Source: an uncultured Candidatus Saccharibacteria bacterium (GTDB taxonomy: Bacteria > Patescibacteriota > Minisyncoccia > Phycocordibacterales > UBA2100). From it: a DNA stretch of 64,000 nt. Where the stretch lies: positions 12,280-76,279 of the forward strand of contig CAZUVH010000004.1 of NCBI GenBank assembly GCA_964623775.1. The letters run 5' to 3'. This document shows positions 1-61,069 of this stretch, in pieces (positions within the stretch are counted from its first letter, which is position 1; each line of letters starts with the position of its first letter). The notes beneath the pieces were generated by a model, which was given only the letters and a program-made list of their open reading frames with translations, made no database searches and was not told the origin of the DNA. A program made the translations under genes and the position numbers.

Positions 1-181
1 TGATGAATCTCACGAAATTATTCTGTCCTGACATACTTGTGACTGTTGAGGAAAAGATATGCTCGACGGGGGAGCTCATGGCCGCGTGGATATCTGGATT
101 TTGACGCAAAATAGCAGCAAGAAGCGTCGACCCCGAGCGGGGCAATCCGGCGATAAAATACGTGTTCTTTGCCTGCGCCAT
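1..181 (-). CDS. Sulfotransferase family protein (N-terminal part; gene continues beyond window start)
   Basis: Reverse-strand translation from the ATG complement at 179-181 gives MAQAKNTYFIAGLPRSGSTLLAAILRQNPDIH.... GLPRSGSTLL matches the 5'-phosphosulfate-binding loop of PAPS-dependent sulfotransferases. The gene lies 37 bp downstream of sat/cysC on the same strand. It is open at the window edge and absent from the ORF track. Confidence 0.5.
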   Translation of the reverse strand, partial: MAQAKNTYFIAGLPRSGSTLLAAILRQNPDIHAAMSSPVEHIFSSTVTSMSGQNNFVRFI

Positions 182-5689: not shown

Positions 5690-7060
5690 CTAATAGTGAT
5701 ACCAGTTCTGCACAGGGTAGCCAACAACTTTTGCCTCAGGCGGCACGAGTATCCAGGAATTGTGTGTGAATGGCGCGTAATCAATGTCGCACATATCCGC
5801 TTGTTCAACGATTCTGTAGAAAGGCCCGCCGTTTATTGAATGATCGAATTGCAGCGCTATTCGATGTATGTTCGGATTTTGCTTGCATTGGTTGCGCAGC
5901 TTCGACCACCATTCATACGGATCGCATCTATTCCAGGCTGTTCCCGATTCATACCGCATCTCCAGGGTGTTTTCCTTTGCGCCGAGCATTGTTGCGCGCT
6001 TCACGAGGCAATAGAAGCCGCCGCAAGGTGTTCCTTCTGAAACCTCGTAATCTCTATCAGGGTCTAATTTTTCGGATGTATACCTCGTCACGGTGGCAAT
6101 GCATTGATGATTTGCCTCAAACATAAACATGCCGTACCGATTTCCTTCGAGTGTGAGGTAGCGATCAGATGAGATACTGAACCCAAGCAGTTGAAAGAGC
6201 GCGACGATCACGACCAGACACCACCCCGCGATGGCGGCGCGCGTAAAAGGTGTCTTTGTGTGGCGGTACATCGGACCAAATAGAATAAGGAGAGGTGGGA
6301 GTGAGATCGAGGGGTAGTTATATATTACGAGGATCCCAGAATACAAATGAAAGAATACCGCAAATGCAAAACTGGCCCTTTGTAAAATCCAATTGCGCGA
6401 AAGCAAAAACCATGCGCCGACCACCTGCTCGAAAATGACGATGTTTGTCGCTATAGGGATGAGCCAATCAGGGAAAAGGGGAATACCGTCTACCAGGGAG
6501 CTAAAATATGTCCCCTCAATCCATGCGGGAGAGAATTTTACCGTAACCGACATGAAGTAGAATAATACGAACAGGAGTTTCAAAAAATATTCTTTGAAGG
6601 GAATGAAAAGAAGTGCCGCTGTGAGAAATATATGGTAGTAGTCGTACGGCCCCACATTGAGGTAATTGAGAGATAGCTCAAAAATTTTCCAAAGAAGAAG
6701 AAATAGCAAAAGCATGTGAGCGTGCACCCATTGTTTTCTCCACATGCAGTAGACGATAAGCAGCATGATTCCGTAGAGAGCCATGTACACTGTGGTGTGC
6801 GAATACCCGTACGGCAGCGCGTGTAATACGTAAAAATCGGCGCAGCTTTGGAAAAAAGGCCAGCACACGGCACCGGCATTGCGTGCGGCCTCTGCCGTGA
6901 TATTTGAGCGTATACTCCATACGAAGAATGTGACGAAAAAATAAAAAAGCATCGCTCCGAACATCCACTGGAGAACGATGCCGCTCTCAATTTCGTCGAT
7001 ACTGAAAATTTTCCGATATTTCGCCGCAAAAATTCGCCAATAGTGTCTGACCTTTCCCAT
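5690..7060 (-). CDS. Polytopic integral membrane protein with C-terminal Cys-containing soluble domain (weak HTTM/VKGC-like resemblance)
   Basis: 456 aa, roughly 9 predicted TM segments in the first 300 aa. It starts 3 bp after the SagB stop, making it the third gene of the copy-1 YcaO-SagB operon. Confidence 0.55.
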   Translation of the reverse strand: MGKVRHYWRIFAAKYRKIFSIDEIESGIVLQWMFGAMLFYFFVTFFVWSIRSNITAEAARNAGAVCWPFFQSCADFYVLHALPYGYSHTTVYMALYGIMLLIVYCMWRKQWVHAHMLLLFLLLWKIFELSLNYLNVGPYDYYHIFLTAALLFIPFKEYFLKLLFVLFYFMSVTVKFSPAWIEGTYFSSLVDGIPLFPDWLIPIATNIVIFEQVVGAWFLLSRNWILQRASFAFAVFFHLYSGILVIYNYPSISLPPLLILFGPMYRHTKTPFTRAAIAGWCLVVIVALFQLLGFSISSDRYLTLEGNRYGMFMFEANHQCIATVTRYTSEKLDPDRDYEVSEGTPCGGFYCLVKRATMLGAKENTLEMRYESGTAWNRCDPYEWWSKLRNQCKQNPNIHRIALQFDHSINGGPFYRIVEQADMCDIDYAPFTHNSWILVPPEAKVVGYPVQNWYHY

Positions 7061-7062
7061 AG

Positions 7063-7815
7063 CTAATTTTCGGTAATTGTCGCTGTACCGGACAATGTAT
7101 CCTGTCGGCTACATACAGTGATGGCATGCAGCGCCTGTTCCTGCTCCTCTTCAAGGTCAAGAAGCTGTGCGACTTTTGCGTCATCAAAACCCGCATACGG
7201 CCGTACATTGAGGTCGAGCGCGGTGCCGACGAGTAATATATTTTCGCTCATATGGCCGGCTTCGAGGAGGGCGTGAAGGTAGGCAAGATTGCCGTACTTT
7301 GCGGATGAGCGTTTCCACACGCTGGTAAAAACGATCAAGCTTGAAACGGGAAGCGTCTCGGGGTGCTTGGCGACATCTTTCATATTAAAGCCAGCCGGAA
7401 GATCCCATAGCCGCTCAAGTGCGTGTTTCGTCGGATTGTAATGAAATACGGCAGGGGTTTGTGATTCCAATGCCGTTGAGATGAGATATGTCTCCACGGG
7501 ATAGAGTCCGCCGCCAGACGGGTAATTCCGGTTCATCACGCCTGCGCGCTTTCGCAGCGCGAGGCCAAGCAATGTCCCGAATGTTTCGAGCGAAACCGGA
7601 ATCGCGGGGTCCCCGGAAAAGGCAGAGCTTCGATGTTCGAGCACACTGTATAGCGTCGTTGTGATCTGCTCGGGGTCGGGAAGCGGGATAAGCGGCATGC
7701 GAGCGTATGTCTTGTGCTGCCCCCTCGGCACGTCTTCTGGGCGGTGGGTGGCGCCACGCCTCGTGAGGCGCGCACCTCGTAATTCTGCATGCAGGTGTGA
7801 TAAAAAGGATGTCAT
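7063..7815 (-). CDS. SagB-type (McbC-like, nitroreductase-fold) dehydrogenase, copy 1
   Basis: Track ORF 7063..8016 is N-extended. The real start, MTSFLSHLH, is at 7815 and forms an ATGA overlap with the YcaO stop. The HRSSAFSG and NRNYPSGGGLYPVETY motifs are typical of SagB/ThcOx dehydrogenases. It is 62% similar to copy 2. Confidence 0.8.
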   Translation of the reverse strand: MTSFLSHLHAELRGARLTRRGATHRPEDVPRGQHKTYARMPLIPLPDPEQITTTLYSVLEHRSSAFSGDPAIPVSLETFGTLLGLALRKRAGVMNRNYPSGGGLYPVETYLISTALESQTPAVFHYNPTKHALERLWDLPAGFNMKDVAKHPETLPVSSLIVFTSVWKRSSAKYGNLAYLHALLEAGHMSENILLVGTALDLNVRPYAGFDDAKVAQLLDLEEEQEQALHAITVCSRQDTLSGTATITEN

Positions 7816-9257
7816 GAAAATGGGTGAGGTCTCTCGGCGAAAGGTTTTTTCAAGGGAGTGTACCCGAGAGCCTTGGGAACCTCGTGCCAGCGCGCTCCGC
7901 CAAACTGCTGAATCCAATCCATAAGATACGTGGGTTGCAGCTGCGGGATGACGACCATTTCTATATGCAGAGAGGTAGGATTTTTCGCAGATGTGCCGAG
8001 CGAAACGGAAATGCACTCGAACTCATTTTTCCTGCACCATTGCGTGATTCGCTGCAATTGCTGCTCCTCATCATCGTTATCCCATTCTGAGTGCCCGATC
8101 TCGATTTCCTTTCCCTGAATCAGAAATTCAAGTTTTTTGGCATTTTCCGGAACGCTCCAATAGTATACGCGTTCGCGATGCCCGATCTTTTCGACGGGCG
8201 TACTGTTATCCCACGTATTTCCCTCCTCGAACCATGAGCGACAGAAGCGGCGTGCGCGTATCGCCTCGGTCGTCGCTTTTTCAATTGCATAGGGGAGTGA
8301 TCGATGCGCTTTAAGGCCGATCGAAAAACGGGGTGCGCCGCCACTCAGATCTTCGGTCACGACGGCCACTGCGTGAGTCGGCGCATCGGTGGGGAGCTGT
8401 ATGACATGTGTCTTGAGTCGGTATCTCTCGCATTTTGCGACGCTCCTTGCGAGCGACGGAGATTGAGCGCACAGGGGAGCGAGCGCAATGCGTGGGAGAG
8501 TCATCTGATTGAGCCACATGATCATGTACGCCTCGCGCTCGATCACTTCGAGCGCGCCAGCAAGTCTCGCTCCGGATTGTGTGCGCCATGTCGCGAGGCC
8601 GTTTGTATTTTGCTGTCGGATCACTGGCTCTTGTGCGCCTCCCGGCAAATTACGACGTCGTATACCGGCCACGACCTGTGCCGGTATATACACGCTGCCT
8701 CCGTGCACTAGCGAAGTGCCCTGGATCCAAAGATATTCCGCGTCGGGGCGCAGCTGTCGTTCTGGGTACTCCGCACGCTGCTCCTCCGAAAATCCAACAA
8801 TATCTTCCGGTGGAACAAAGAGCCCCAACTTTCCGATCTCGTCCTTCGTCGCACGCGTCGGATTCATAAAGTAGTCGTCCTGCGTCATCCAGATATATCG
8901 CTCAAGCGCCTCGGAAAGAGTGGCGTAGAGCGCATCTGCGTCACTTTCCCATGTGGTACCCCCAACCTGATGATTTGATTCGTTATTACAAACGGCAGTC
9001 CAGTTTCTCATGGGCGGCTCATCAGGGAAAAAGAGGCTCGTCTGACCGAATGATTTTATGACCCCGCTTTCTCTCAAGAGTGCGGCGAGTTGTAGCGGCT
9101 CGCGTAAATCTGGGCGGCCAAACGGGATTTTTTGTACGTCGAACATGACCCTCGCGCCGAGCCTGTTCTCGACATAGTTTGCGAATGCTGCGAGCGCCTT
9201 ATTTTTCAAGTCGGATCCAGTGAGTGTTTGGCTGAACGGCACTGCATCAAAAATCAT
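7812..9257 (-). CDS. YcaO-domain protein (azoline-forming cyclodehydratase family), copy 1
   Basis: 481 aa. It carries the YcaO signatures ALYATLSEALERYIW and QQNTNGLATW, and is a paralog of 16149..17588. Confidence 0.85.
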   Translation of the reverse strand: MIFDAVPFSQTLTGSDLKNKALAAFANYVENRLGARVMFDVQKIPFGRPDLREPLQLAALLRESGVIKSFGQTSLFFPDEPPMRNWTAVCNNESNHQVGGTTWESDADALYATLSEALERYIWMTQDDYFMNPTRATKDEIGKLGLFVPPEDIVGFSEEQRAEYPERQLRPDAEYLWIQGTSLVHGGSVYIPAQVVAGIRRRNLPGGAQEPVIRQQNTNGLATWRTQSGARLAGALEVIEREAYMIMWLNQMTLPRIALAPLCAQSPSLARSVAKCERYRLKTHVIQLPTDAPTHAVAVVTEDLSGGAPRFSIGLKAHRSLPYAIEKATTEAIRARRFCRSWFEEGNTWDNSTPVEKIGHRERVYYWSVPENAKKLEFLIQGKEIEIGHSEWDNDDEEQQLQRITQWCRKNEFECISVSLGTSAKNPTSLHIEMVVIPQLQPTYLMDWIQQFGGARWHEVPKALGYTPLKKPFAERPHPFS

Positions 9258-9263
9258 GCCAGC

Positions 9264-9269
9264 ATCATA
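9264..9269 (-). promoter_or_regulatory. -10 box (TATGAT) 6 nt upstream of the YcaO ATG, suggesting a leaderless transcript
   Basis: Reverse complement reads ctgtTATGATgctggcATG. The same arrangement occurs at copy 2. Confidence 0.3.
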
Positions 9270-9322
9270 ACAGTCCGAGGACCTCCATGAAAGTTCTCGG
9301 TCCTTATCCCCATTGGATTTCT

Positions 9323-9351
9323 TTGACAGTCGGATGGATCACCACAATAAT
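9323..9351 (+). promoter_or_regulatory. Putative sigma70 promoter for the precursor-peptide operon (TTGACA-N17-AATAAT)
   Basis: TTGACA at 9323-9328 and AATAAT at 9346-9351. The ATG at 9364 is 12 nt downstream. Confidence 0.35.
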
Positions 9352-9363
9352 GCATATACGTAT

Positions 9364-9675
9364 ATGGTAATCCTTGAAAAAACGAGTAGCGGGGTGACGG
9401 GGATTTTTAAGAAAATTGCAAGCGCAGCCCTCGTGGTATCTGGGTTTGTGCTGATATTTTTCACGACGCATTCAAAATCTTCGGGAGTCACGCAATCGAT
9501 TTACGGTGCGGACGTAGCGCATGCGGATGTACCATCTGGCGACAGCGCAAGCAGCTCAGGCGACGCATCTGGCAGCGGCAGCGGCGCGAGCGATTGCGGC
9601 GGTGGCGGTGACTGCGGAGGTTCTGATGGTTGCGGAGGCTGTGGCGACAGCGGTTCTGATAGTGGGGGGTACTAA
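9364..9675 (+). CDS. Candidate RiPP precursor peptide, copy 1 (hydrophobic N-terminal helix, Gly/Ser/Cys-rich C-terminal core)
   Basis: Track ORF 9313..9675; the start conserved with copy 2 is MVILEKTSSG at 9364. The C-terminus SGDSASSSGDASGSGSGASDCGGGGDCGGSDGCGGCGDSGSDSGGY has 6 Cys in a Gly/Ser matrix and is microcin B17-like. It is divergent from YcaO. Confidence 0.55.
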   Translation: MVILEKTSSGVTGIFKKIASAALVVSGFVLIFFTTHSKSSGVTQSIYGADVAHADVPSGDSASSSGDASGSGSGASDCGGGGDCGGSDGCGGCGDSGSDSGGY

Positions 9676-9693
9676 ATCGTGGTGCCGAAAACA

Positions 9694-10806
9694 ATGTCAC
9701 ACATTTTAAGACTTATCGTTTGGTTGCTCGCACTATTAATTCCGATAATAGTCGTTTATGGCGTCTACAACCTCGTTATACTGAAAAGTGCACAACCCGT
9801 TCCCTCTGATTTGGTCCCTATCTTGCAGGCAATCCGAAATGGAAACGAACAAGCCGCCATTGATCTCTACGAGACCATTCAGAATGATCCGAGCAAGAAC
9901 GCCGGTGATAAGGCGCTCGCGACCCTTTATATTTTAAATACGAGCTACAGTTTATCCGGCGACGGCGACGACAGTCTGGAAGAGGTGAAGGCGTTGAAAA
10001 AAATAATCAATGATCCGCTGATAATCAAGAAGGTGCGAGCGGCAGCCGTCAATGTCCTTGGGAATGAGTACAATGTTTCAGGAAAGAATCTAGACGTTGT
10101 CACCGAGATTTACAAAGACGAACCATTTCGCTCATATGAAGTTCCCGGGGATCCGGAACTATCATCCTTGAACCTTCAGAAGTGGTCATACGACATGTTT
10201 CCTTCGTCTGCTGCGGCAATAAGCGTCGCACAGATCGCCTCTGGACGATATTTTTCCCATCCAGATCAGCCGGCGAGCACCACAGCGGCCTACGTGGCTA
10301 TGGCCGAGGATTACCTGGGCAAGGCTGAAGCAGCCGTCATCGAGGAGCTGGAGGGCAATCCTCAGTGGTATGTGGCCAGCCATCGATACATGATATACCG
10401 CTCAATGCGAGCGATCACAATCGGTCGTCTGGCTATAACAAAGGGGGAACCGTACCGCAGTGCATACCGCAGAGAATTCGATGATTTTTTCGCACATGCG
10501 GAGGGGAAGAAAAGCGCCGCAGCAAGTAAAGCAATTCTCAGTACACGCTTTCAGTATGCCAGAGTTCTTGCCGCCGATAAGGACGAGATCAACGAAAAAA
10601 TACAGCTCGACCAGCTGGCGCAAGCACTCAACTCGCTTCAGGATCCCGATAACTATCCTCTCGTACTCCTTTTTAAGAACGAGTATTTAAACCAACCAAC
10701 TGGCCTGACGTGGACCGCTGTAAAACGGATGGCCACAGTATCGCCGGATTTCAAAGTTGCGGTTGAAAGGCTCACTGTTCTGGCTTCGACCCACGCTTCG
10801 CAGTGA
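9694..10806 (+). CDS. Membrane-anchored protein of unknown function (conserved in both cassette copies)
   Basis: About 370 aa with an N-terminal TM helix. It is a paralog of 18017..19105 (shared motifs EIYKD.PF.SY.VP.DP.LS.LN, AAAKG, SPD.K.AV). Confidence 0.5.
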   Translation: MSHILRLIVWLLALLIPIIVVYGVYNLVILKSAQPVPSDLVPILQAIRNGNEQAAIDLYETIQNDPSKNAGDKALATLYILNTSYSLSGDGDDSLEEVKALKKIINDPLIIKKVRAAAVNVLGNEYNVSGKNLDVVTEIYKDEPFRSYEVPGDPELSSLNLQKWSYDMFPSSAAAISVAQIASGRYFSHPDQPASTTAAYVAMAEDYLGKAEAAVIEELEGNPQWYVASHRYMIYRSMRAITIGRLAITKGEPYRSAYRREFDDFFAHAEGKKSAAASKAILSTRFQYARVLAADKDEINEKIQLDQLAQALNSLQDPDNYPLVLLFKNEYLNQPTGLTWTAVKRMATVSPDFKVAVERLTVLASTHASQ

Positions 10807-11615
10807 AAAGTAGGACGATACATATTGCCCGTAAAAAGATCGTCTCGATAGGGGTGATTGTTCTCGTATCTCTCGGAGTTTTGGTTGTGTTGTACCCCGA
10901 GGTCGCGCGCGGAGTATATGAAGTCGTTTCGACACGGTTGTTTCCAAATGCTGATCGTGAATTTGCATACGGCGAACGACATTTTGATACATACAAGCCG
11001 GAAGCGTATAGCATAGACCTTGCCGAATACTTTTTTCGACAGGCGGAGAAGCATGATCCAAAAATCCCGTATCTCTACCATGAAATAGCCCGTGTCGATT
11101 TTCTGAAAGGCAATCTCCATAAGGCGCTTATCGAGATCAATATTCAGATTCAAAGGCACGGAGATAAGACGCCGAATTCGTACTACATTCGCGGGCTGAT
11201 CGAAGGGTACATAGGGGATTATGTCGCTGCGGCGAAGGATTATGAGCGGTATTTACAATTCGACCCGACGAATTGGGCGGCGATCAACGACTACGCGTGG
11301 GTCCTCCTAAAAGCGGAGCGTTATACAGACGCCGAACGAGCGATAGTAAAAGGTCTCACGTATTTCCCCGACAATCCGTGGCTCCTCAACTCGTATGCCA
11401 CAGCGCTCTTTGAGCTTGGAAAACATGAGCGCGCCCTCGTCAGCGCAAAAAAAGCGCAAGAACGGATGCTGCACCTGACGGAAGGAGAGTGGTCGCGCGC
11501 ATATCCCGGGAATGATCCTGAGATTGCAGGGCAGGGAGTATCCACATTCAGGACAGCGGTAGAGGCGAACGTGCGCACTATTGAGGCAGCTATCGCGTCA
11601 AGCACGAAAAAGTAA
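10803..11615 (+). CDS. TPR-like repeat protein, membrane-anchored (conserved in both cassette copies)
   Basis: 270 aa with an N-terminal TM helix. It is a strong paralog of 19111..19911 (QGYEVVSTRL, PYLYHE.AR..FL, IQRHGD.TPNSYY, AYPGNDP). Confidence 0.5.
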   Translation: MKSRTIHIARKKIVSIGVIVLVSLGVLVVLYPEVARGVYEVVSTRLFPNADREFAYGERHFDTYKPEAYSIDLAEYFFRQAEKHDPKIPYLYHEIARVDFLKGNLHKALIEINIQIQRHGDKTPNSYYIRGLIEGYIGDYVAAAKDYERYLQFDPTNWAAINDYAWVLLKAERYTDAERAIVKGLTYFPDNPWLLNSYATALFELGKHERALVSAKKAQERMLHLTEGEWSRAYPGNDPEIAGQGVSTFRTAVEANVRTIEAAIASSTKK

Positions 11616-11716
11616 AATACCTCCCCGTTCACTCGGTTTATCAACATCGTGCGCACCGTATAAAAAAAGTATTGATATGATTGGGGTAATAGAGCCGCAC
11701 TCGACCGTATTTTTTT

Positions 11717-13231
11717 ATGCAACATCCTCATACAGCAAAGAGTCGGACGTGGCATCTCGTCCGGCGTCAGCTTGCAGTCGTCGCGGGGTTGAGTATTTTT
11801 GCGTTCGCACTTTTTGTTGGCGTGAACTCTTTCGATGCGCGCCAGACCAACCTTTCTCCCGAGGTCAAATTTACCGATGTCTCCGCGAACGGCATGCAGA
11901 TAGTCCCCGCGTCTTGCCCCTCGTCGCCGCACTATGCGGGTGAGTGCAGTGCTTGTACGATAAGCGCCTCGCCATCGACGATATTAGAAGGTCAAAGTAC
12001 AACATTGACATGGGCAACGCCCGTTCTTGATCCTATATACACGGCCAGCGGATCAATCAGCCCGACCGTCGGCGCCGTTGCAGGATCAGGCAGTACCGCC
12101 GTAACCCCATCTGTCACTACGACATACACATATTCAGGCACTTATTACTTTGGCGGTGCCCCGACGGCGAGTACGTACACGTGTGCGACGACGGTCACGG
12201 TTAATGCGTTACCGCCCGCAGCCGTAACGAATCTTACGGTATCGACCCCTGCACCTGGCACATCGGCGACTCTCACCTGGACGGCTTCTCCTGGGGCAAC
12301 CAACTACTACATCAACGTCAACAACAAAATGAACGCATGGGGGCCAACTCTCTGCAATGGCACAATAAACGACGGCAATACAAATGACCTGTGCTATGCC
12401 TCGACTGCGGGTACATCGTATACATTTCCATACTGTATTCCGGGATCAGATTACTGGGCGGTCGTATACGCAAGTAATTCGGGAGGAACTTCCGCCGGTA
12501 CAGTCATAGATTTCTCTTGTCGACCCGGCCCGGTGACCAACCTTACAGCGTCGTGTCCTGCGCCAGGGACTGCGGCAATCTTGAATTGGACCGCCGTTTC
12601 TGGGGCAACCAACTACTACATCAACGTCAACAACAAAATGAACGCATGGGGGCCAACTCTCTGCAATGGCACAATAAACGACGGCAATACAAATGACCTG
12701 TGCTATGCCTCGACTGCGGGTACATCGTATACATTTCCGTACGGCATCGGAGGATCAGATTACTGGGCGGTCGTATACGCAAGTAATTCGGGAGGAGTTT
12801 CGACCAGTACAGCCGTAGATTTCTCCTGCGTTTCGCCGTGTGCCGACAGTTACTTCTGTCAGGGCAATGATCTCATGCATCAAGATACGGCTTGTAATAA
12901 TACGGTCAGCTTGATATGCAGCTATGGATGTTCAGCCGGCGCGTGCATTGTGCCGAACCCCACGATCAATCTCTCTGTCACGCCACTGCTCCTCCAAAAG
13001 GGTGAGATGTCACAGGTGGTGTGGAGCACTACCGACATGAGCTCTTGCACCGTGACGAGTAACAACGGCGCTTCGTGGAGCGGGCTCTCCGGCTCGCAGA
13101 CCTCGCCGGCGATACAAATGCAAACGATCTTCACTGTCCGCTGTACTTCGGTCATGGATACCACGGTCTCGCAGGCTGCGACAGTCAATATCATCCCGGT
13201 ATTCTGCGAACCGGGGACACCGGAGTGCTAA
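11717..13231 (+). CDS. Secreted/membrane-anchored Cys-rich repeat protein (two near-identical ~100-aa repeats; conserved C-terminal domain)
   Basis: 504 aa with an N-terminal TM or signal segment. An internal tandem repeat (nt ~12240-12530 vs ~12540-12830) encodes VTNLT.S.PAPGT.A.L.WTA.SGATNYYINVNNKMNAWGPTLCNGTINDGNTNDLCYASTAGTSYTFPY. The C-terminal domain is shared with 19923..21548. Confidence 0.55.
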   Translation: MQHPHTAKSRTWHLVRRQLAVVAGLSIFAFALFVGVNSFDARQTNLSPEVKFTDVSANGMQIVPASCPSSPHYAGECSACTISASPSTILEGQSTTLTWATPVLDPIYTASGSISPTVGAVAGSGSTAVTPSVTTTYTYSGTYYFGGAPTASTYTCATTVTVNALPPAAVTNLTVSTPAPGTSATLTWTASPGATNYYINVNNKMNAWGPTLCNGTINDGNTNDLCYASTAGTSYTFPYCIPGSDYWAVVYASNSGGTSAGTVIDFSCRPGPVTNLTASCPAPGTAAILNWTAVSGATNYYINVNNKMNAWGPTLCNGTINDGNTNDLCYASTAGTSYTFPYGIGGSDYWAVVYASNSGGVSTSTAVDFSCVSPCADSYFCQGNDLMHQDTACNNTVSLICSYGCSAGACIVPNPTINLSVTPLLLQKGEMSQVVWSTTDMSSCTVTSNNGASWSGLSGSQTSPAIQMQTIFTVRCTSVMDTTVSQAATVNIIPVFCEPGTPEC

Positions 13232-13270
13232 GACTAGAGTCTCGGGGGCAATGATTCGTACAGGAAAGAC

Positions 13271-14905: not shown

Positions 14906-14910
14906 ACCGC

Positions 14911-14977
14911 GTGCTATTTTTTGCGGCTCGCGAGAGTTCGAAATGAAAGCTCGTTTTCATTTCGTTCGAGCGAAGAC
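14911..14977. repeat. ~65-bp palindromic intergenic repeat, family member 1 (inverted relative to the copy at 30906-30970)
   Basis: GCGGCTCGCGAGAGTTCGAAATGAAAGCTCGTTTTCATTTCGTTCGAGCGAAGACGCAAAAA. Its reverse complement matches 30906-30970 at ~85%, including the CGAAATGAA..TTCATTTCG hairpin core. Confidence 0.5.
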
Positions 14978-15046
14978 GCAAAAAAGGTTTAAATCTTTAT
15001 AGCATGAGGCATACACATGTGTAATGCCCTGTTTCTGTCTCATACA

Positions 15047-15080
15047 CAAAAAAAGACCGCCCTATGCAAATGGGGCGGTC
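15047..15080 (-). terminator. Rho-independent terminator of copy-2 YcaO-SagB operon
   Basis: GACCGCCC-tatgcaaat-GGGCGGTC hairpin followed by a T-run on the minus strand. Confidence 0.55.
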
Positions 15081-15099
15081 TGAAAGTTCTTAGGAAGAT

Positions 15100-15345
15100 T
15101 TATTTGCAGGGTGGTCGGATCCTGCAGCTAAACGGGCCGTTCTCGCCGATACCGTTCCAGTTGCAGGTGCTCTTGCACGTCCTGTAGGCAACCCCACAGT
15201 CCGGTGAGGGCATTTTGGCCGCCCGACGTGCCTCGCACGTCGATTTGCCTGCCTCACACGAGGGAATTGTATTGCAGAACTGCGCTGACGCAGGGGACGC
15301 CACCACCACGGCAGCAACGAACATCGTCGCAAGAAGTACACGCAT
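15100..15345 (-). CDS. Small secreted Cys-rich protein (8 Cys), last gene of copy-2 operon
   Basis: 81 aa. Signal peptide MRVLLATMFVAAVVVASPASA, then CNTIPSCEAGKSTCE...CKSTCNW...FSCRIRPPCK. Confidence 0.45.
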   Translation of the reverse strand: MRVLLATMFVAAVVVASPASAQFCNTIPSCEAGKSTCEARRAAKMPSPDCGVAYRTCKSTCNWNGIGENGPFSCRIRPPCK

Positions 15346-15441
15346 GTCTCGCTCCTTCCTATCGCACGCATTTTGCGCACGATCTCTAATGCAGATTAGA
15401 CCCTTTTAGGGGCACAAGTCAATTTTTTTGCGCCGGCAGCT

Positions 15442-16152
15442 TCATCCTTTGCACACGGTGATCGTATGCACCGTTTGCTCCTCACTTTCGTCGAGATCAA
15501 GAAGCTCCGCAATGCGCTCATCATTAAATCCGGCAAAAGGTCGAAGGTTGAGCCCGAGCGCGTTCCCGACGAGGAGGATATTTTCGCCCATGTGACCTGC
15601 TTCCAGAAGCGCTACCGTGTACGTGAAATCCCCGTATTTTGTGGAGGAGCGTCTCCATACGCTCGTAAAAACGAGAAGCATTGAAGGGGGAAGTGACTCA
15701 GGATATGCGGCAAGCTGTTTTAGATCGTAGTCCTCGGGAAGGCTCCAGAGGCACTCGAGCGCATGATCGCTCGGATTGTAGTGAAATACTGCTGGTGCCT
15801 GTGATTCGAGTGCAGTCGATACGAGGTACGTTTCGATTGGATAGAGCGCGCCTCCCGAAGGGTAGTTGCGATTTACGGAATTTGGTCGCCTCTGTAGCGA
15901 CCCGAGCAACGTGCCGCATTCTTGCAGAGTGAGAGGCGCGCACGTATTTCCTCCAAAAGACGAATGACGGTGTGTGATAGCGTCCTGTAAATCCACACCG
16001 AGTTTCGCCGGCTTCGGAAGCGGGATCTGCTTCATGCGAGCGTAGCGTTTGTGCATCCCCGTGGGCACGTCTTCGGTACGGTGCGTGGCGCCTCGATGCG
16101 TCAGAAGTGTGCGACGCAAATCTGTATGCAGGTGAGATAAAAATGATGTCAT
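15442..16152 (-). CDS. SagB-type dehydrogenase, copy 2
   Basis: 236 aa. It starts with the same MTSFLSHLH as copy 1 and carries the HRHSSFGG and NRNYPSGGALYPIETY motifs. It has an ATGA overlap with the YcaO stop. Confidence 0.8.
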   Translation of the reverse strand: MTSFLSHLHTDLRRTLLTHRGATHRTEDVPTGMHKRYARMKQIPLPKPAKLGVDLQDAITHRHSSFGGNTCAPLTLQECGTLLGSLQRRPNSVNRNYPSGGALYPIETYLVSTALESQAPAVFHYNPSDHALECLWSLPEDYDLKQLAAYPESLPPSMLLVFTSVWRRSSTKYGDFTYTVALLEAGHMGENILLVGNALGLNLRPFAGFNDERIAELLDLDESEEQTVHTITVCKG

Positions 16153-17588
16153 AAGAAAGGGTGCGGTCTCTCTCCAAACGGTTTTTTGCGCGGCGTATAC
16201 CCAAGTGCTTTTGGAACGTCATGCCACCTGTCACCGCCGAATTGTTGCACTGATTCATTGAGATATGTCGGCTGGAGCTCGGGAATCACCATCATCTCTA
16301 TGTGCAAGTGCGTTGGGTTTTTTTCTGAAGAAGTGAGAGGGACTGAAATACACTCGTAATCCTTATCCTTGCACCACTTAATAATCCTCTGCAAGTGCTC
16401 TTTCGTCGAGTCATTATCCCATGGACTCTTTTGGATCTCGATTTCCGGACCCTGCACCATAAATTCCAGGTGCTTGGAATGTTCGGGCACTGCCCAGTAG
16501 TAGACACGATCCATGTGGCCTATTTTCTCGATTGGAGTGCTCACGTCCCACTGGTTGCCCGCACTCATCCATTGTCTGCATAAACGATTCGCTCGGATTG
16601 CCTCAGCCATGGCTTTTTCGATGGCATGGGTGAGAGAGGTGTGAGCATTGAGGCCTATCGTGAAGCGGGGCGCGTTTCCCGATACATCCTCCATAATGAC
16701 CGCTACAGCATGGACTGGTGCATCTGTCGGTAGTTGAATTACGTGTGTCCTGAATTGATATCGCTCGCAGAGCGCGACCGCGCGCCTGAGAGTTTGCGAC
16801 TGTGCGAGTAGTGGAGAAAGTGCGATGCGGGGAAGTGTCAGCTGGTTGAACCACATGATCATGTACGCATCCCGTTCGATAAGCTCAAGCACCCCCCCAA
16901 GCCGGGCCCCGTTTTGTGTCGGCCATGTCGCAAGCCCGTTGGTGTTTCGCTGGCGGATAAGAGGTTCCTCTTTGGAACCCTGCCAATTAAGCGACGAACA
17001 GCTCACTGTCTGCGCTGGGATGTAGACAGAGCCTCCCTGTGTAAGGGATGTGCCCTGTATCCAGAGGTACTCTGCGTCGGGACGGAGGCGACGTCGGGGG
17101 TACTTTTCGCGCTGTTCGTTTGTAAAGCCCACAAAACTTTGCGGAGCTACGTGCCGTCCGTACTCAGCTATTTGTTCAGTAGTTGCCCGGACCTTACCAG
17201 TGAAATAGTCATCTTGAGTAAACCAGATGTAACGCTCAAGAGCCTCCGCAAGTGCCGCATACAAGGCGCCCTGGTCACTATCCCAGGAATAGCCGTTTGC
17301 CATGTGGTCTGTGGTGTCGTTGCATATGGCATACCATCCCCACATGCGCGGATCATCGGGACTATACGAGACTCTCCCGAGAGATTGTATGACACCAGCC
17401 TCTTTTAAAAGGGTGGCGAGTCTGAGCGGCTCTTCTAGGTCTGGGCGGGAAAAGGGGATATTGCGTAGATCCTTCACTATTTTGACGCCAAGATTTTTTT
17501 CCATGTAATCCGTCAGGGTTCTTCGCGCTCTGCTTCGTATATCGGCGCTCTCCAGTGTGTCGCGGTAGGGCACCGCATCGAAAATCAT
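16149..17588 (-). CDS. YcaO-domain protein, copy 2
   Basis: Track ORF 16149..17798 is N-extended. The start conserved with copy 1 (MIFDAVPY) is at 17588. It carries ALYAALAEALERYIW and RQRNTNGLATW. Confidence 0.85.
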   Translation of the reverse strand: MIFDAVPYRDTLESADIRSRARRTLTDYMEKNLGVKIVKDLRNIPFSRPDLEEPLRLATLLKEAGVIQSLGRVSYSPDDPRMWGWYAICNDTTDHMANGYSWDSDQGALYAALAEALERYIWFTQDDYFTGKVRATTEQIAEYGRHVAPQSFVGFTNEQREKYPRRRLRPDAEYLWIQGTSLTQGGSVYIPAQTVSCSSLNWQGSKEEPLIRQRNTNGLATWPTQNGARLGGVLELIERDAYMIMWFNQLTLPRIALSPLLAQSQTLRRAVALCERYQFRTHVIQLPTDAPVHAVAVIMEDVSGNAPRFTIGLNAHTSLTHAIEKAMAEAIRANRLCRQWMSAGNQWDVSTPIEKIGHMDRVYYWAVPEHSKHLEFMVQGPEIEIQKSPWDNDSTKEHLQRIIKWCKDKDYECISVPLTSSEKNPTHLHIEMMVIPELQPTYLNESVQQFGGDRWHDVPKALGYTPRKKPFGERPHPFL

Positions 17589-17595
17589 AGCGAGA

Positions 17596-17601
17596 TTATA
17601 G
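17596..17601 (-). promoter_or_regulatory. Consensus -10 (TATAAT) 7 nt upstream of the YcaO ATG, suggesting a leaderless transcript
   Basis: Reverse complement reads gctgcTATAATctcgctATG. Confidence 0.35.
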
Positions 17602-17649
17602 CAGCATCCACGCTGTCCGATACATTTTGCGACTATCCACCGAATGTCA

Positions 17650-17678
17650 TTGATGCATGGTCGCGTTCTTGTAATAAT
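17650..17678 (+). promoter_or_regulatory. Putative promoter for precursor operon copy 2 (TTGATG-N16-TAATAAT)
   Basis: Positioned like the copy-1 promoter. The ATG at 17691 is 12 nt downstream of the -10. Confidence 0.3.
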
Positions 17679-17690
17679 GTACACATCTGT

Positions 17691-17993
17691 ATGGCCATCA
17701 TTGAAAAGACAAGAAGCGGTGTACGAACCTTTTTTGAAAAAATCGGACAAGTGGGACTTATCACCGTTGGACTCGTGTCGCTCTTTTTTGCCCCTCATCC
17801 TAAATCATCCGATGTCGCACAATCAGGCGAGCATCTATTTGGTGCCGGCGTCGCGCATGCAGACGCGCCCTCAGGAGATTCGGCAAGCAGCGCCAGTGGC
17901 GATGCTGGCTGTGGTACCGGCGGCTGCGGTGCCGGCAGCAGCGATAGCGGTGGCGGCAGCGATAGTGGCTGCGGCTGCGGTGGGTGCTACTGA
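17691..17993 (+). CDS. Candidate RiPP precursor peptide, copy 2
   Basis: 100 aa: MAIIEKTRSGVRTFFEKIGQVGLITVGLVSLFFAPHP...GAGVAHADAPSGDSASSASGDAGCGTGGCGAGSSDSGGGSDSGCGCGGCY. It has the same architecture as 9364..9675, including the conserved VAHAD.PSGDSASS junction. Confidence 0.55.
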   Translation: MAIIEKTRSGVRTFFEKIGQVGLITVGLVSLFFAPHPKSSDVAQSGEHLFGAGVAHADAPSGDSASSASGDAGCGTGGCGAGSSDSGGGSDSGCGCGGCY

Positions 17994-18016
17994 GTTGAAC
18001 AAATTTAATCTTACCC

Positions 18017-19105
18017 ATGTTGCATACTACAAAACTGATCAGTTGGCTCGCTGGACTATTGCTTGTTGGGACGCTTTTTTACACGGTCAGTTATTTTTCT
18101 GGCACTCTGCGATCAAAAAGCGACGCGCCTTTCTATACAGTAGATCTTCTTACCGCAAAAGCAGGGGGCGATAACGTGGTGGCACTGGCACAATACCGTG
18201 CAATTCAAGATGATCCCAGGAAAACAAGCGAGGAAAAAGCGCTTGCCGAACTTCTCATCGTCGGCGCTGAGTTCAGCCAGACAGGTGATGTGAAAGCTCG
18301 ATTGCGTGAAATTCAGAAGATGAAAGAAATTTCAATGGACGCCTCGCTTTCTGCAGGTGTCCGCGCAACAGCGATGGCGATTCTTGGCAGCGAATACAGC
18401 GTGTCTGGCAATGATCCGGTTGTCTTTGCCGAAATCTACAAGGACCCACCTTTTGATTCGTATCTTGTGCCAAATGATCCCCACCTCTCGGCGCTCAATA
18501 TAGAGAAAGCGTCGTACGCTATAGTGCCCACGCCCGTCGCTGCCGTGAAAATTGCTCACATCGCATCTGGCCAGTATTTTGCCAATCCAAATCAGTCGGC
18601 AAGTACTAGGGCAGCCCATATTGCCATGACAGAGGAGTATATCAATAAAGCCGATGTGGCTGTGATGAGAGAGATACGCGGGGCCGGCTATACAGAAGGT
18701 GATCGATATATGTTTTATCGCGCACTGCGGGCGGTCAGTATCGGCCAACTGGCGGCCGCGAAAGGACAGCTCGAGGGGGGCGCTTATCGCAAGGAATTTG
18801 AAGACTTTTTCACGCTTGCGCAGTCGAAGAAAAGTTTTGCTGCAAAAAATTCACTCCTGAACGTTCGTTATGAGTATGCTTCGATTCTTGCGGCAGATGA
18901 GGATACTGCAGCCGAAAAAGCACAGCTTGATCTGCTCGCCCGGGAATTGAACGAGCTTCCCAATCCCAAAATCTACACCCTTGTTTTGCTCTTAAGAAAC
19001 GAGCACACGTATCGCCCCACGGGTCCGGTCTGGGTTGCGACAGAAAAAATGTTTAAAGTATCGCCGGATCTTAAGGCTGCGGTTAACAAGATCATCGCGT
19101 CCTGA
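18017..19105 (+). CDS. Membrane-anchored protein of unknown function (paralog of 9694..10806)
   Basis: 362 aa with an N-terminal TM helix. Motifs are conserved with the copy-1 protein. Confidence 0.5.
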   Translation: MLHTTKLISWLAGLLLVGTLFYTVSYFSGTLRSKSDAPFYTVDLLTAKAGGDNVVALAQYRAIQDDPRKTSEEKALAELLIVGAEFSQTGDVKARLREIQKMKEISMDASLSAGVRATAMAILGSEYSVSGNDPVVFAEIYKDPPFDSYLVPNDPHLSALNIEKASYAIVPTPVAAVKIAHIASGQYFANPNQSASTRAAHIAMTEEYINKADVAVMREIRGAGYTEGDRYMFYRALRAVSIGQLAAAKGQLEGGAYRKEFEDFFTLAQSKKSFAAKNSLLNVRYEYASILAADEDTAAEKAQLDLLARELNELPNPKIYTLVLLLRNEHTYRPTGPVWVATEKMFKVSPDLKAAVNKIIAS

Positions 19106-19110
19106 CCACA

Positions 19111-19911
19111 GTGAAAAGCAGACGGCTACATTTTGACTGGAAGTGGGCGGTGCGCATTTTCCTCGTAGTCGCGATTGTCGCGCTCATCTTCCCAGAACAG
19201 ATTCGTCAGGGATACGAAGTGGTGTCGACTCGACTGCTTCCCGACGCACAGCGCGAATTTCAGTACGGTCAACGACACTTCAATGCTGCGGACCCCGTAG
19301 CATACAACGTCGATTTGGCAGAATATTTTTACCGCCAGGCAGAAAGGCATAATCCCAGCATCCCGTATCTGTATCATGAGTTGGCGCGCATTAGTTTTCT
19401 CAGGGGTAGGTTCGAGCAAGCACTTCTCGAAATCAACCACCAAATCCAGCGTCACGGCGACAGGACGCCAAATTCGTATTACATGAGGGCACTCATCGCG
19501 GGATATAAAGGCGACTACGATATAGCGATACGCGACTATGAATACTTTTTGAAACTCGTGCCCACTAGCTGGGCGACTGCCAACGACTATGCATGGGTCC
19601 TTCTCAAGGCCGACAAGCCCGAGAAGGCTGCGAAAGTCACGGGAGATCTCTTGAAAGTACATCCCGAAAATCCGTGGCTCCTGAGCACCCACGCCATAGC
19701 GCTCTATGAAATGGGCGATTTGCACGGGGCGCTTCGAGTAGCAAAGGAGGCCCTGGCTGCCTCGGCAAAGATAACTGAAGCGCAGTGGCTCAAGGCGTAT
19801 CCTGGAAATGATCCGCGCACCGCACAGCAGGGGATTGAGACGCACCGCACGTCTATCGAAGACAATATACACAAGATAGAAATAGCAATTGCCGAGGATG
19901 CGATACAATAA
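19111..19911 (+). CDS. TPR-like repeat protein (paralog of 10803..11615)
   Basis: 266 aa, about 55% identical to the copy-1 protein. Confidence 0.5.
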   Translation: MKSRRLHFDWKWAVRIFLVVAIVALIFPEQIRQGYEVVSTRLLPDAQREFQYGQRHFNAADPVAYNVDLAEYFYRQAERHNPSIPYLYHELARISFLRGRFEQALLEINHQIQRHGDRTPNSYYMRALIAGYKGDYDIAIRDYEYFLKLVPTSWATANDYAWVLLKADKPEKAAKVTGDLLKVHPENPWLLSTHAIALYEMGDLHGALRVAKEALAASAKITEAQWLKAYPGNDPRTAQQGIETHRTSIEDNIHKIEIAIAEDAIQ

Positions 19912-19922
19912 AGTGAAATAGT

Positions 19923-21548
19923 ATGTCTCATTCGCACCGGAACTCTCTATCGAGATCGGCAAAAAAAGAACTGGCTATGTGGGCAGTACTCCTTTTTGCT
20001 GCGGTCGCATTCTCGTTCTCAGCAAGCACTAATGCGTCGACACCGTTCACATCCTCGGAGGTACATTTTGCGGACTCTTCAAAATCGGGCCTCTCGATCG
20101 TGCCCGCGTCGTGTGAATCGGGCATCGCCCATGAATCCTTCATGTATAACGGTGTGTTTACCACTGAGTGCAGCTGTCCTGCGGGCACAACCTTCACCTC
20201 AACTCCTAATCCAACGTTTCCTCTGGCCCCGTATCTCACATGTACACCAAATGTATGCACTGGCACCGATCCAGCCAACGCGACGATGTGCACGGGGGAT
20301 AGCAGTGGGCTCTCGGCAAACACCGCGAAGACAGTTGCGACTGCCTGCGGAACACCAAAATGCGAATTTACCTGCAATAGCGGCTTCGTGAAATCCGGGA
20401 ATACATGTGTGCCGGCTGTATGCACCGGCTCTGATCCAGCGAACGCGACTATGTGCTCGGGCGACAACACAGGACTATCGGCAGATACGGCTAAGACAGT
20501 TGCGGCTGCCTGCGGAGTACCAAAATGCGAATTCACCTGCAACAGCGGCTACCTAATATCCGGGAATACATGCGTGCAGTCGTGTCCCGCCGGTCAGGTG
20601 TGGAACGGCAGCGCATGCGTGTCGGCATGTCCAGCAGGTCAGACATGGAACGGTAGTGCATGTGTATCGTCGTGTCCTACGGGGCAAGTCTGGAATGGGA
20701 GTGCTTGTGTCCTCACGTGTCCGGAAGGTCAAACGTGGAATGGTAGTGCGTGCGTCGCGATGTGCACGAGCGGCCAGGTGTGGGACGGTACTGCCTGTGT
20801 GACGCCACAGTTTTCATGCACCGGATCCATACCGTCCAACTCTGCACTTTGCGCGAGCGACAATCTGGGACTTACGTCAGATACGCCGAGAACGCTTGCA
20901 GCATCGTGCGGTGCACCAAAATGTGAATATCTTTGCAATGGCGGCTATGTGAAGTCCGGCAACACATGCGTAGCAACATGCCCTTCGGGTGAGATATGGA
21001 ACGGCAGCACGTGCGTCACGAGCTGCCCGACCGGACAGACGTGGAACGGCACTTCTTGTGTGCCGATCTGCACGGGCGGTCAGGTCTGGAATGGTAGCGC
21101 CTGCGTGTGCCCGAGCGGACAGACGTGGAATGGCAGTATGTGCGTCGGATCGTGCGCCGATACCTATTTCTGTCAGGGCAACAGTCTCTACCACCAGAGC
21201 GCGAGCTGCGAAAATACGCTATCGCAGACGTGCAGCTACGGCTGCTCTGCGGGCGCATGCAATGCGCAACCGGCGGGGAATATTGATTTCGTCGTAACGC
21301 CGCTTCTCGTGAGAAAGGGTGAGACGGCCCAAGCCACCTGGAGTACGATCAATATCACTTCGTGCACCGTGACGAGCACCAATGGAGCAGCGTGGAGTGG
21401 TACATCAGGCACAGAGGTATCAGCACCCATAAATGCCCAGACGGTCTTCACGATTCGCTGCAATTCCAACACGGGATCGGTAATTACGAAGACCGCGACT
21501 GTCAACATCATCCCTACATTCTGCGAAGCGGGCTCGCCCGGTTGCTGA
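19923..21548 (+). CDS. Secreted Cys-rich repeat protein (about ten 13-aa CP.GQ.WNGS.CV repeats; conserved C-terminal domain)
   Basis: 541 aa with a signal/TM segment. It has two ~43-aa CTG.DPANATMC.GD..GLSA.TAKTVA.ACG.PKCEF.CNSG repeats, then ten CPAGQVWNGSACV-type repeats. The C-terminal ~130 aa align with 11717..13231 (YFCQGN..H...C.NT.S..CSYGCSAGAC, TV.C, NIIP.FCE.G.P.C). Confidence 0.55.
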   Translation: MSHSHRNSLSRSAKKELAMWAVLLFAAVAFSFSASTNASTPFTSSEVHFADSSKSGLSIVPASCESGIAHESFMYNGVFTTECSCPAGTTFTSTPNPTFPLAPYLTCTPNVCTGTDPANATMCTGDSSGLSANTAKTVATACGTPKCEFTCNSGFVKSGNTCVPAVCTGSDPANATMCSGDNTGLSADTAKTVAAACGVPKCEFTCNSGYLISGNTCVQSCPAGQVWNGSACVSACPAGQTWNGSACVSSCPTGQVWNGSACVLTCPEGQTWNGSACVAMCTSGQVWDGTACVTPQFSCTGSIPSNSALCASDNLGLTSDTPRTLAASCGAPKCEYLCNGGYVKSGNTCVATCPSGEIWNGSTCVTSCPTGQTWNGTSCVPICTGGQVWNGSACVCPSGQTWNGSMCVGSCADTYFCQGNSLYHQSASCENTLSQTCSYGCSAGACNAQPAGNIDFVVTPLLVRKGETAQATWSTINITSCTVTSTNGAAWSGTSGTEVSAPINAQTVFTIRCNSNTGSVITKTATVNIIPTFCEAGSPGC

Positions 21549-21549
21549 T

Positions 21550-22056
21550 ATGAATAAAACATTGAGTGCGGTACATTCGTCGCGCTCGGGCATGGCGAGT
21601 GTGCTAGCAACAGTCGTCCTTGCGCTGGCGCTGGCTTTTTTCCAGACGCCGATTGCCTCGGCACAGACGAATGACGCGACAAACAGCGAACTACGTGCGG
21701 CGGTGGAAACACTGCTCCTCGCTGATCCGCGCGCAGCATCTTTGCCGCAGCAAGAATTTGATGAGATGGTCAGTGCGCTCGTCGCTGCTGCCGAGAAAAA
21801 GGGGCTGACCGCGAGTGAGATTTCGTGGCGCCCGCAACCAGTCTCGAGCTATTCTCAGAGCGCTTCGGTCGGCGAGATACAAGCCTGCGCCGATAATTCC
21901 ATCTTGTGCATGATCAACGAAGCGTTTGGATTTACCGGCCCCGATATCAGCATACCGATGTGGTTTGGTATCTGCTCTGCAATTTTACTCTTGATCCTCG
22001 GAGGTATGATCGAGGTGCATCGTCGTACGCACGCGGCACCGACCATCAAAAAGTAG
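21550..22056 (+). CDS. Hypothetical exported/membrane protein
   Basis: 168 aa with an N-terminal signal-like segment and a C-terminal TM helix. Confidence 0.4.
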   Translation: MNKTLSAVHSSRSGMASVLATVVLALALAFFQTPIASAQTNDATNSELRAAVETLLLADPRAASLPQQEFDEMVSALVAAAEKKGLTASEISWRPQPVSSYSQSASVGEIQACADNSILCMINEAFGFTGPDISIPMWFGICSAILLLILGGMIEVHRRTHAAPTIKK

Positions 22057-38903: not shown

Positions 38904-38941
38904 TCTAACAGTTACGAATCGTGGCTGGTACAATACTTTGC

Positions 38942-59140: not shown

Positions 59141-61069
<1,929 letters not shown>

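Follow-up and report, generated by a model that had tools for sequence, protein, structure and literature searches.

Microcin B17 (McbA, McbBCD), streptolysin S (SagABCD), plantazolicin and the heterocycloanthracins belong to the linear azol(in)e-containing peptides (LAPs), in whose loci a YcaO protein and a SagB/McbC-type dehydrogenase are encoded beside a small precursor. A similar gene set occurs twice in a 64,000 nt stretch of DNA (the window) from an uncultured Candidatus Saccharibacteria bacterium (GenBank assembly GCA_964623775.1, contig CAZUVH010000004.1), within the interval between the genes for ribosomal proteins S10 (rpsJ) and L3 (rplC), hereafter the S10-L3 island. As in microcin B17 and other LAPs, the C-terminal part of the precursor is rich in Gly, Ser and Cys, the Cys and Ser residues mostly follow Gly, and a conserved head precedes a variable core. 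Unlike in those systems, neither an E1-like partner (McbB/SagC) nor Ocin-ThiF was found in the island, and no genes for export, immunity or proteolysis were recognized there; a transmembrane (TM) helix and an AHADAP motif are part of the leader, and the tail is strongly acidic (13% Asp) and sometimes free of Cys. Whereas the clusters for microcin B17 and other LAPs are sporadic or plasmid-borne, this locus is chromosomal, syntenic and class-wide. Added to the LAP pathway are a protein with the predicted fold of vitamin K-dependent gamma-carboxylase (GGCX), a phosphoribosyltransferase (PRTase) fused to a beta-propeller, and four envelope proteins.

The locus is best read as a lineage-wide, syntenic part of the chromosome that is vertically inherited, not as a sporadic biosynthetic cluster. 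We see about an even chance that it specifies a membrane-tethered, LAP-like peptide system of Parcubacteria/Paceibacteria that serves the cell envelope, inherited vertically and represented in the window by two old copies. The searchable literature yielded no account of it; one paper counts YcaO clusters of the candidate phyla radiation (CPR) by antiSMASH and reads them as McrA thioamidation (PMC12153355), the only mention of CPR YcaOs that was found.

The YcaO and SagB-type enzymes

In both cassettes the YcaO and SagB genes are found on the minus strand, joined by a 4 nt ATGA overlap and divergent from the precursor gene, just as the original prediction had described them from the open reading frames (ORFs). 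All four proteins are recognized by their family models: PF02624 scored 143.8 bits for YcaO_A and 160.6 bits for YcaO_B (cutoff 25.7), and TIGR03605 scored 107.6 bits for SagB_A and 114.1 bits for SagB_B (cutoff 78.4). The best YcaO model, by more than 100 bits, was TIGR03604 (SagD/TOMM, for thiazole/oxazole-modified microcin), at 164 bits (A) and 202.4 bits (B). A role with RimO in the modification of ribosomal protein S12 has been proposed for the YcaO of E. coli, and a RimO-associated enzyme was the alternative raised with the original prediction, but the corresponding model (TIGR00702) gave just 47.6–47.8 bits against a cutoff of 75.65. The same score leaves the automatic JGI label 'S12 methylthiotransferase accessory factor', carried by YcaO relatives, unsupported. 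An assignment to the McrA-type or TfuA-type YcaOs was likewise rejected, as TIGR03266 scored 53–56 bits against a cutoff of 365.

The structure of YcaO_A was modeled with AlphaFold2 (AF2) from 26 family members (pLDDT 92.9) and compared with the PDB using Foldseek. The first match was LynD (E 1.5e-21, TMq 0.68), followed by the azoline-forming MusD and TruD, and these cyanobactin heterocyclases matched with E values of about 1e-21 to 1e-18, TMq of 0.65–0.69 and about 20% identity. Archaeal thioamide YcaOs, E. coli YcaO and McbD ranked lower. LynD, TruD and MusD share the YcaO fold and the ATP/Mg motifs with the protein described here, but they carry a fused N-terminal leader-binding domain of about 300 aa, of the E1-like/RRE type (RRE, recognition element of peptides that are made by the ribosome and modified after translation, or RiPPs), whereas YcaO_A consists of the YcaO domain alone. 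The alignment with LynD's YcaO domain takes in about 465 of its 481 residues. The N-terminal 100 residues thus lie within that domain and leave no room for an RRE or E1 module. An extra RRE/E1 domain in these 100 residues was also rejected on the order of their secondary structure elements, which is unlike that of an RRE.

The acidic ATP/Mg motifs E116/E119/R120 and E237/E240/R241 are invariant in the family and align to those of MusD and TruD. The Lys-Tyr motif of SagB (K173-Y174), which has a role in azoline oxidation, is retained in 34–35 of 36 family members. The extreme C-terminus of YcaO is invariantly P-H-P-[FY]-x (P477-H478-P479 in copy A, with a variable final position), a partial match, keeping the first two prolines, to the Pro-rich PxPxP C-terminus described as canonical for azoline-forming YcaOs (PMC12338566). 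Judged by its motifs and its modeled fold, the YcaO is an ATP-competent enzyme of the azoline type. More distant YcaO-SagB pairs (23–26% identity) in other phyla adjoin ordinary soluble LAP precursors (L039, L043), and this ties the family to azole chemistry.

Scans of every ORF of the S10-L3 island against Pfam and NCBIfam gave no match to ThiF/E1, Ocin-ThiF, PqqD/RRE or TfuA, which agrees with the earlier remark that a separate E1-like/ocin-ThiF 'C' protein is missing and extends it to the RRE. Among the same ORFs, no ABC transporter, immunity gene, or peptidase or leader protease was recognized. Because there is no E1-like partner, the YcaO must recognize its substrate directly. Stand-alone YcaOs such as BotC/BotCD of the bottromycin pathway and the YcaO-TfuA systems for McrA and the thioamitides likewise have no E1-like partner, but they are not coupled to a SagB, and they make a single azoline or amidine or, with TfuA, thioamides. 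Their existence, that of Cys-free precursor tails, and the high rank among the structural matches of MusD, for which ATP-dependent backbone cleavage is reported (7u58, 'YcaO-mediated ATP-dependent peptidase activity'), all lend something to the idea that a different YcaO chemistry acts on the tail (thioamide or amidine formation, or ATP-dependent backbone cleavage), with SagB in a redox role other than azole formation. This is clearly unlikely, however, given that there is no TfuA or sulfur-transfer gene in the island, that an ATGA-coupled SagB with an intact Lys-Tyr motif is a signature of azoline oxidation, and that the PHP[FY]x ending of the YcaO partly matches the motif of azoline-forming enzymes.

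A second, far more divergent YcaO (21–33% identity) is encoded a few kb from the main locus in three genomes (L009, 3453–4859; L026, 4579–6126; L034, 18463–19824), and two of these proteins end in a full PHPFP or HPFP motif.

The precursor family

The two small ORFs that had been called precursor-like, at about 100 aa, encode proteins of 103 and 100 aa and are, to judge by their sequences, members of a genuine leader/core-type precursor family with a TM helix inside the leader. Each begins with a positively charged N-terminus; next come a hydrophobic helix in which a G-F is conserved, a spacer leading to the motif [GD]VAHAD[AV]P, and a tail of 42–48 residues built from G, S, D and C and ending in Tyr (GGY and GCY). 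Gene context was compared across two distant members and 33 family loci from GTDB species genomes, and under a strict filter the same precursor architecture was found divergently upstream of YcaO in 25 of the 33. Together with the two precursors of the window, this gave a precursor set of 28.

Within this set the N-terminus carries a net positive charge, hydropathy reaches 1.55–2.73 in the best window of 19 residues, the spacer spans 11–26 residues and the tail 22–70. The conserved head carries the family motif G[VI]AHADAP, while the tail is hypervariable, acidic and nearly free of K and R, with a composition of 29% G, 21% S, 13% D, 11% C and 10% A. Nearly all the Cys lies in the tails (140 of 1242 residues, as against 5 of 1590, or 0.3%, in the heads). 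The tail Cys residues mostly have Gly neighbors, and Cys and Ser are found mainly in G-C and G-S contexts. The head profile retrieved 45 further database proteins of 66–116 aa, all annotated as 'hypothetical' and all from Paceibacterota/Parcubacteria, and the precursors of the window have no curated family match in Pfam or NCBIfam.

Translation of precursor A starts at the ATG at 9364 and not at the TTG at 9313, and genes called independently on a Logan contig include this 103 aa product. The near-consensus, promoter-like sites of the two precursor genes are the two best sigma-70-like matches of the region, at homologous positions and with the same spacing to the ATG, and their end so close to the start codon suggests that the precursor mRNAs are nearly leaderless. 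Scans for promoters and terminators were otherwise at chance level.

A core that is rich in G, S and C, hypervariable like that of microcin B17, diversified and duplicated could also belong to a classical secreted antimicrobial LAP of the microcin B17 or streptolysin type, in which the hydrophobic head would be no more than an unusual leader or signal for export, removed at AHA|D, and the free azole peptide would attack the host or competitors. AHA|D does resemble an AxA signal-peptidase site, and one relative of the precursors weakly matches PF25184 (YxzE-like putative bacteriocin; 26 bits, under the 40-bit cutoff). The AHA is, however, 11–26 residues past the TM segment, a long way for signal peptidase I. 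No ABC transporter, immunity or leader protease gene was recognized in the island, and throughout an entire class of reduced genomes the locus keeps one chromosomal position and one gene order. A secreted toxin is, in our view, rather unlikely. That the position is fixed, that the system extends through a class and that no immunity or export genes accompany it all favor a physiological role at the cell surface over an antibiotic one.

Locus order and duplication

Relatives of YcaO of about 480 aa and 46–68% identity form more than 180 clusters, and the named ones are all from Parcubacteria-type CPR. The recurring gene order, read from rpsJ, is PRTase/propeller, memA (in some loci), SagB and YcaO in one orientation, then precursor, p375, TPR, big and p168 in the other, followed by rplC-rplD-rplW-rplB. 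SagB adjoins YcaO in all 33 loci, the propeller fusion lies downstream of SagB in 24 (often within 6–100 nt), and the TPR and big exoprotein genes are present in 27 and 21, respectively. The rplC flank was found in 12 loci, half of those with sufficient upstream sequence, and rpsJ borders the opposite side in at least 10 other genomes as well as in the present one. Homologs of p168 occupy the same slot in nine loci (L001, L004, L006, L007, L012, L014, L017, L023 and L032). Precursor, YcaO and SagB are adjacent in every related locus for which sequence is available, and in the most remote members, too, p375 comes directly after the precursor; the p375 of L027, where YcaO is 39% identical, is homologous to that of the window (hhalign 97.4%, E 1e-11). 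The gene order thought worth seeking in metagenomes therefore recurs, in about 30 metagenome-assembled genomes (MAGs) of Parcubacteria/Paceibacteria, and while the YcaO/SagB/precursor set of the proposed biosynthetic cassette stands, it forms a fixed chromosomal locus across a lineage and not an occasional cluster. The MAGs of L003, L007, L008, L012, L014, L019–L021 and L023 are labeled 'Saccharibacteria' or 'Methanosarcinales archaeon', probably through mislabeling or mis-binning.

The position of the locus inside a ribosomal-protein region raises the question of whether the small membrane protein is a substrate at all. YcaO and SagB might instead modify some other protein, such as a ribosomal protein or a Cys-rich exoprotein, adjacency to the small gene being synteny only, and YcaOs do act on full-size proteins such as McrA. 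Against this, the adjacency and divergence of precursor, YcaO and SagB are kept in L027–L029, which have neither the ribosomal flank nor most of the accessory genes, a conserved head with a hypervariable tail is typical of RiPP precursors, and the TIGR00702 and McrA-type models score far lower than TIGR03604. Such a substrate is improbable.

Both cassettes of the window share the order SagB, YcaO (leftward), precursor, p375, TPR and big Cys-rich exoprotein (rightward). The coordinates are given in Table 1.

Table 1. Features of the two cassettes and the right-hand border of the island, in window coordinates.
Feature	Coordinates	Strand	Remarks
memA, polytopic membrane protein	5690–7060	-	start 2 nt past SagB_A stop
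SagB_A, SagB-type dehydrogenase (FMN-dependent family)	7063–7815	-	TIGR03605 and PF00881
YcaO_A, ATP-dependent YcaO family, 481 aa	7812–9257	-	PF02624; no fused E1/RRE domain
Promoter-like site A, TTGACA-17-AATAAT	9323–9351	+	ends 12 nt ahead of precursor A ATG
Precursor A, 103 aa	9364–9675	+	TM helix, DVAHADVP motif, 48 aa G/S/D/C tail, last residue Tyr
p375_A	9679–10806	+	N-terminal TM helix, then all-helical domain; alternative start 9694 gives 370 aa
TPR_A, TM-anchored TPR protein	10803–11615	+	TPR Pfam families
big_A, Cys-rich exoprotein	11717–13231	+	TM- or signal-anchored; fn3-like repeats; conserved 135 aa domain at C-terminus
PRTase (PyrE-like) fused to PQQ-type beta-propeller	13271–14905	-	Pfam and NCBIfam; no signal peptide
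81 aa secreted-type Cys-rich ORF	15100–15345	-	gap between SagB_B and propeller gene
SagB_B dehydrogenase	15442–16152	-	TIGR03605, 114.1 bits
YcaO_B	16149–17588	-	PF02624, 160.6 bits
Promoter-like site B, TTGATG-17-AATAAT with TG	17650–17678	+	ends 12 nt ahead of precursor B ATG
Precursor B, 100 aa	17691–17993	+	same head as A, GVAHADAP motif, 42 aa G/S/D/C tail, last residue Tyr
p375_B	18017–19105	+	46% identity to p375_A
TPR_B	19111–19911	+	
big_B, Cys-rich repeat exoprotein	19923–21548	+	
p168, 168 aa	21550–22056	+	signal peptide and C-terminal TM helix; final gene ahead of rplC
rplC (L3)	22203–22835	+	right-hand island border; rplD, rplB next

The original prediction had delimited the paralogous loci as 5690–13231 and 15100–22056. 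The shared order and all the ORF positions hold, but the boundaries need correction. The gene for memA has no paralog in cassette B, the 81 aa ORF at the start of the second interval is unrelated to memA, and p168 has no paralog in cassette A. Conversely, the PRTase/propeller gene, which had been left outside both, belongs to the conserved system by its recurrence in related loci. Cassette B together with the propeller gene and p168 is the canonical copy, and the only memA of the window is in cassette A. This layout could be explained if the whole block was duplicated in tandem and the copies then each lost a different gene, one a propeller gene and the other a memA. The accessory trio of membrane, TPR and Cys-rich proteins is, as had been noted, outside the known RiPP gene sets, but the set is larger than supposed and includes memA, the PRTase/propeller fusion and p168.

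The paralogous proteins are 63% (YcaO), 63% (SagB), 57% (precursor), 46% (p375) and 54% (TPR) identical, and big_A and big_B are 31% identical overall but 58% across the C-terminal 135 aa. At the nucleotide level the cassettes align only in patches, with about 65% identity over 2043, 405 and 310 nt. In the precursor heads of A and B, the proportion of synonymous differences is saturated (pS = 0.78), while that of nonsynonymous differences is far lower (pN = 0.28, and 0.13 in the motif), and for this reason the precursor ORFs are taken to be genuinely coding and the duplication to be old. As far as these substitution patterns go, the head is under purifying selection. The duplication had been described as old, with paralogs 50–60% identical; its age is borne out by the nucleotide alignment and the saturated synonymous sites, but the actual range of identity is 31–63%.

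In a neighbor-joining tree, YcaO_A and YcaO_B share a subclade without being sisters: copy A groups with L003 and P0002–P0005, and copy B with P0008 and L004. The sequence comes from a MAG, and in other runs the contigs end inside the repeat-rich big_A gene, so one might ask whether the cassettes are an assembly artefact of one locus, or the small ORFs non-coding, low-complexity DNA. This has next to no probability. With differences at about 35% of nucleotides and 37–69% of residues, the two copies are too divergent to be a mis-assembly of a single locus. Besides the separate tree positions of the YcaOs and the low pN of the precursor heads, two independent SRA (Logan) assemblies match the copy-A side at 100% over 12.3 kb, and two copies are also present in other genomes (L003, L020 and L034). 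The earlier judgment that the duplication is no artefact is upheld on these grounds. Within big_B, positions 20252–20677 (+) contain a 165 nt repeat (2 copies, 83% matches) and a 45 nt tandem repeat (2.4 copies), which encode Cys-spaced modules.

A bifunctional ATP sulfurylase/APS kinase, for the synthesis of 3'-phosphoadenosine 5'-phosphosulfate (PAPS), is encoded in the same S10-L3 island (window 1–181 (-) and 218–1855 (-); L054, 10466–12922), and a PF00685 sulfotransferase lies just past the left edge of the window, followed by rpsJ. A PAPS-synthesis gene and a sulfotransferase in an island with Tyr-ended peptides recall, by gene content alone, RaxX/RaxST, the sulfated RiPP of Xanthomonas, and sulfation of Tyr or Ser in the Tyr-ended precursors of the window is conceivable. 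Unlike RaxX/RaxST, the arrangement is found in this genome only and is probably an add-on or unrelated; the PAPS synthase and sulfotransferase are absent from all other fetched loci and were rejected as general members of the system. Two paralogous (29% identical), TM-anchored, Cys/His-rich proteins without a family match are encoded at 1856–2983 (-) and 3027–4328 (-), and at least 8 other genomes have relatives of them close to the YcaO locus. Their semi-conserved D[IL]AH.D resembles the precursor [VI]AHAD, although this may be coincidence. Further along, a 938 aa protein with a TraG/TraD-type coupling-protein C-terminal domain (PF12696; 40703–43519, +) is encoded among core genes (SecY, 34922–36196; purD, 38921–40207; FtsH, 59141–61069).

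Partner proteins and the proposed pathway

The product of memA (456 aa) is predicted to have about nine TM helices and, at its C-terminus, a beta-rich domain in which cysteines are invariant (AF2 model, pLDDT 84.4). Foldseek against the PDB returned 13 significant matches, all to human GGCX (E 2e-6 to 1e-4, TMq 0.50–0.56, about 500 aligned columns). The catalytic Lys of human GGCX is K218; in memA the invariant residues K156, K175, H115, H143 and H238 are candidates for catalysis. The predicted likeness to GGCX, a protein of the HTTM fold, extends to the TM bundle and the extracytoplasmic beta-rich domain, and like GGCX, memA would meet an exported substrate in which a conserved recognition segment is followed by an acidic region. 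Unlike GGCX, it has no detectable sequence similarity to that enzyme, the tails are Asp-rich and not Glu-rich, and the hosts probably have no quinones. SdpB, the maturation protein of the Bacillus subtilis SDP toxin, is also of the HTTM type. No HTTM or SdpB model of Pfam or NCBIfam matched memA, 15 orthologs or 10 divergent relatives, and a memA profile did not find GGCX among PDB sequences. A sequence bridge from memA to HTTM was also sought among divergent relatives from a profile search of 1.84 billion proteins, and none was found.

The memA family comprises 649 clusters at 50% identity (E <= 1e-3). In eight loci memA directly follows SagB, and the 2 nt gap after SagB_A places it in the SagB_A operon. 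Among the other memA relatives listed, 28 of 119 have a longest contig equal in length to that of a listed YcaO relative and thus probably share a contig with it. By its modeled structure, memA is a GGCX-fold protein, and it is genetically coupled to the system. The 81 aa ORF of the second cassette occupies the gap that holds memA in other genomes but is not a decayed memA; it has a signal-peptide-like start, 8 Cys and no family match, and its membership in the system is doubtful. The p375 proteins (about 370 aa, with a single TM helix each) have no Pfam, NCBIfam or PDB sequence match. One may speculate that the cytoplasmic PRTase/propeller fusion stands in for the missing leader-binding partner.

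We propose the following pathway. The precursor would be expressed from a strong promoter with almost no 5' untranslated region. In the cytoplasm, before or during export of the tail, the stand-alone YcaO would use ATP to cyclodehydrate tail Cys and Ser residues, and the SagB flavoprotein would then oxidize the azolines to thiazoles and oxazoles; that azoles form in the tail we infer from sequence. The TM head would keep the tail, once modified, anchored on the outside of the membrane, N-in/C-out by the positive-inside rule. By analogy with GGCX, which binds a propeptide adjoining an acidic substrate region, memA may bind or process the tail beside the AHADAP motif, and the p375, TPR, Cys-rich and p168 proteins may dock or assemble it. 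The product would serve the cell surface, in attachment, metal binding or a similar capacity, and would not be an accessory antibiotic.

Several observations weigh against this pathway. An azoline-forming and azoline-oxidizing pair of the TOMM/LAP kind, as originally proposed, is supported by families, folds and motifs, but both YcaO copies score below the NCBI cutoff of TIGR03604 (219.25), and no E1-like/RRE partner was recognized in the island, although canonical azoline-forming LAP systems need one. Nor was a transporter or protease recognized there, and with cytoplasmic enzymes and a tail that is predicted to lie outside, modification and export would have to follow in that order. The tails of L014, P0415 and P0427 have no Cys and those of L007 and P0417 a single one; since some tails are without Cys, thiazoles are not a universal product, and the three Cys-free tails are all Ser-rich. 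The predicted link of memA to GGCX is at the level of fold only, and memA is missing from the S10-L3 interval in some genomes (e.g., L004 and L018). Patescibacteria are reported to lack electron-transport chains (PMC7507113), which makes a quinone-dependent chemistry for memA doubtful.

A bolder form of the proposal is that the locus encodes a membrane-spanning, RiPP-like housekeeping pathway of a CPR class, with azoles formed inside on a TM-tethered peptide by a YcaO/SagB pair that has no partner, a GGCX-fold enzyme and envelope proteins acting outside, and a hypervariable, acidic surface structure that bears azoles and serves host attachment or metal capture as the outcome. This we regard as possible but tentative. 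If it is true, it would provide the first functional context for bacterial GGCX-fold proteins and the first 'structural' azole peptide.

For RiPP enzymology, the locus presents an azoline-type YcaO that would need no E1/RRE partner to recognize its substrate, along with a leader doubling, as predicted, as a membrane anchor, and for the GGCX/HTTM fold it presents a candidate bacterial substrate. The precursors are short enough for a three-gene test in E. coli. The CPR/Patescibacteria have tiny genomes with few recognizable biosynthetic pathways, yet a system of 9–10 kb has been retained beside their ribosomal-protein genes. Its retention at one chromosomal position, together with its duplication, suggests a function that is important to CPR biology, possibly at the cell surface or in the episymbiotic way of life.

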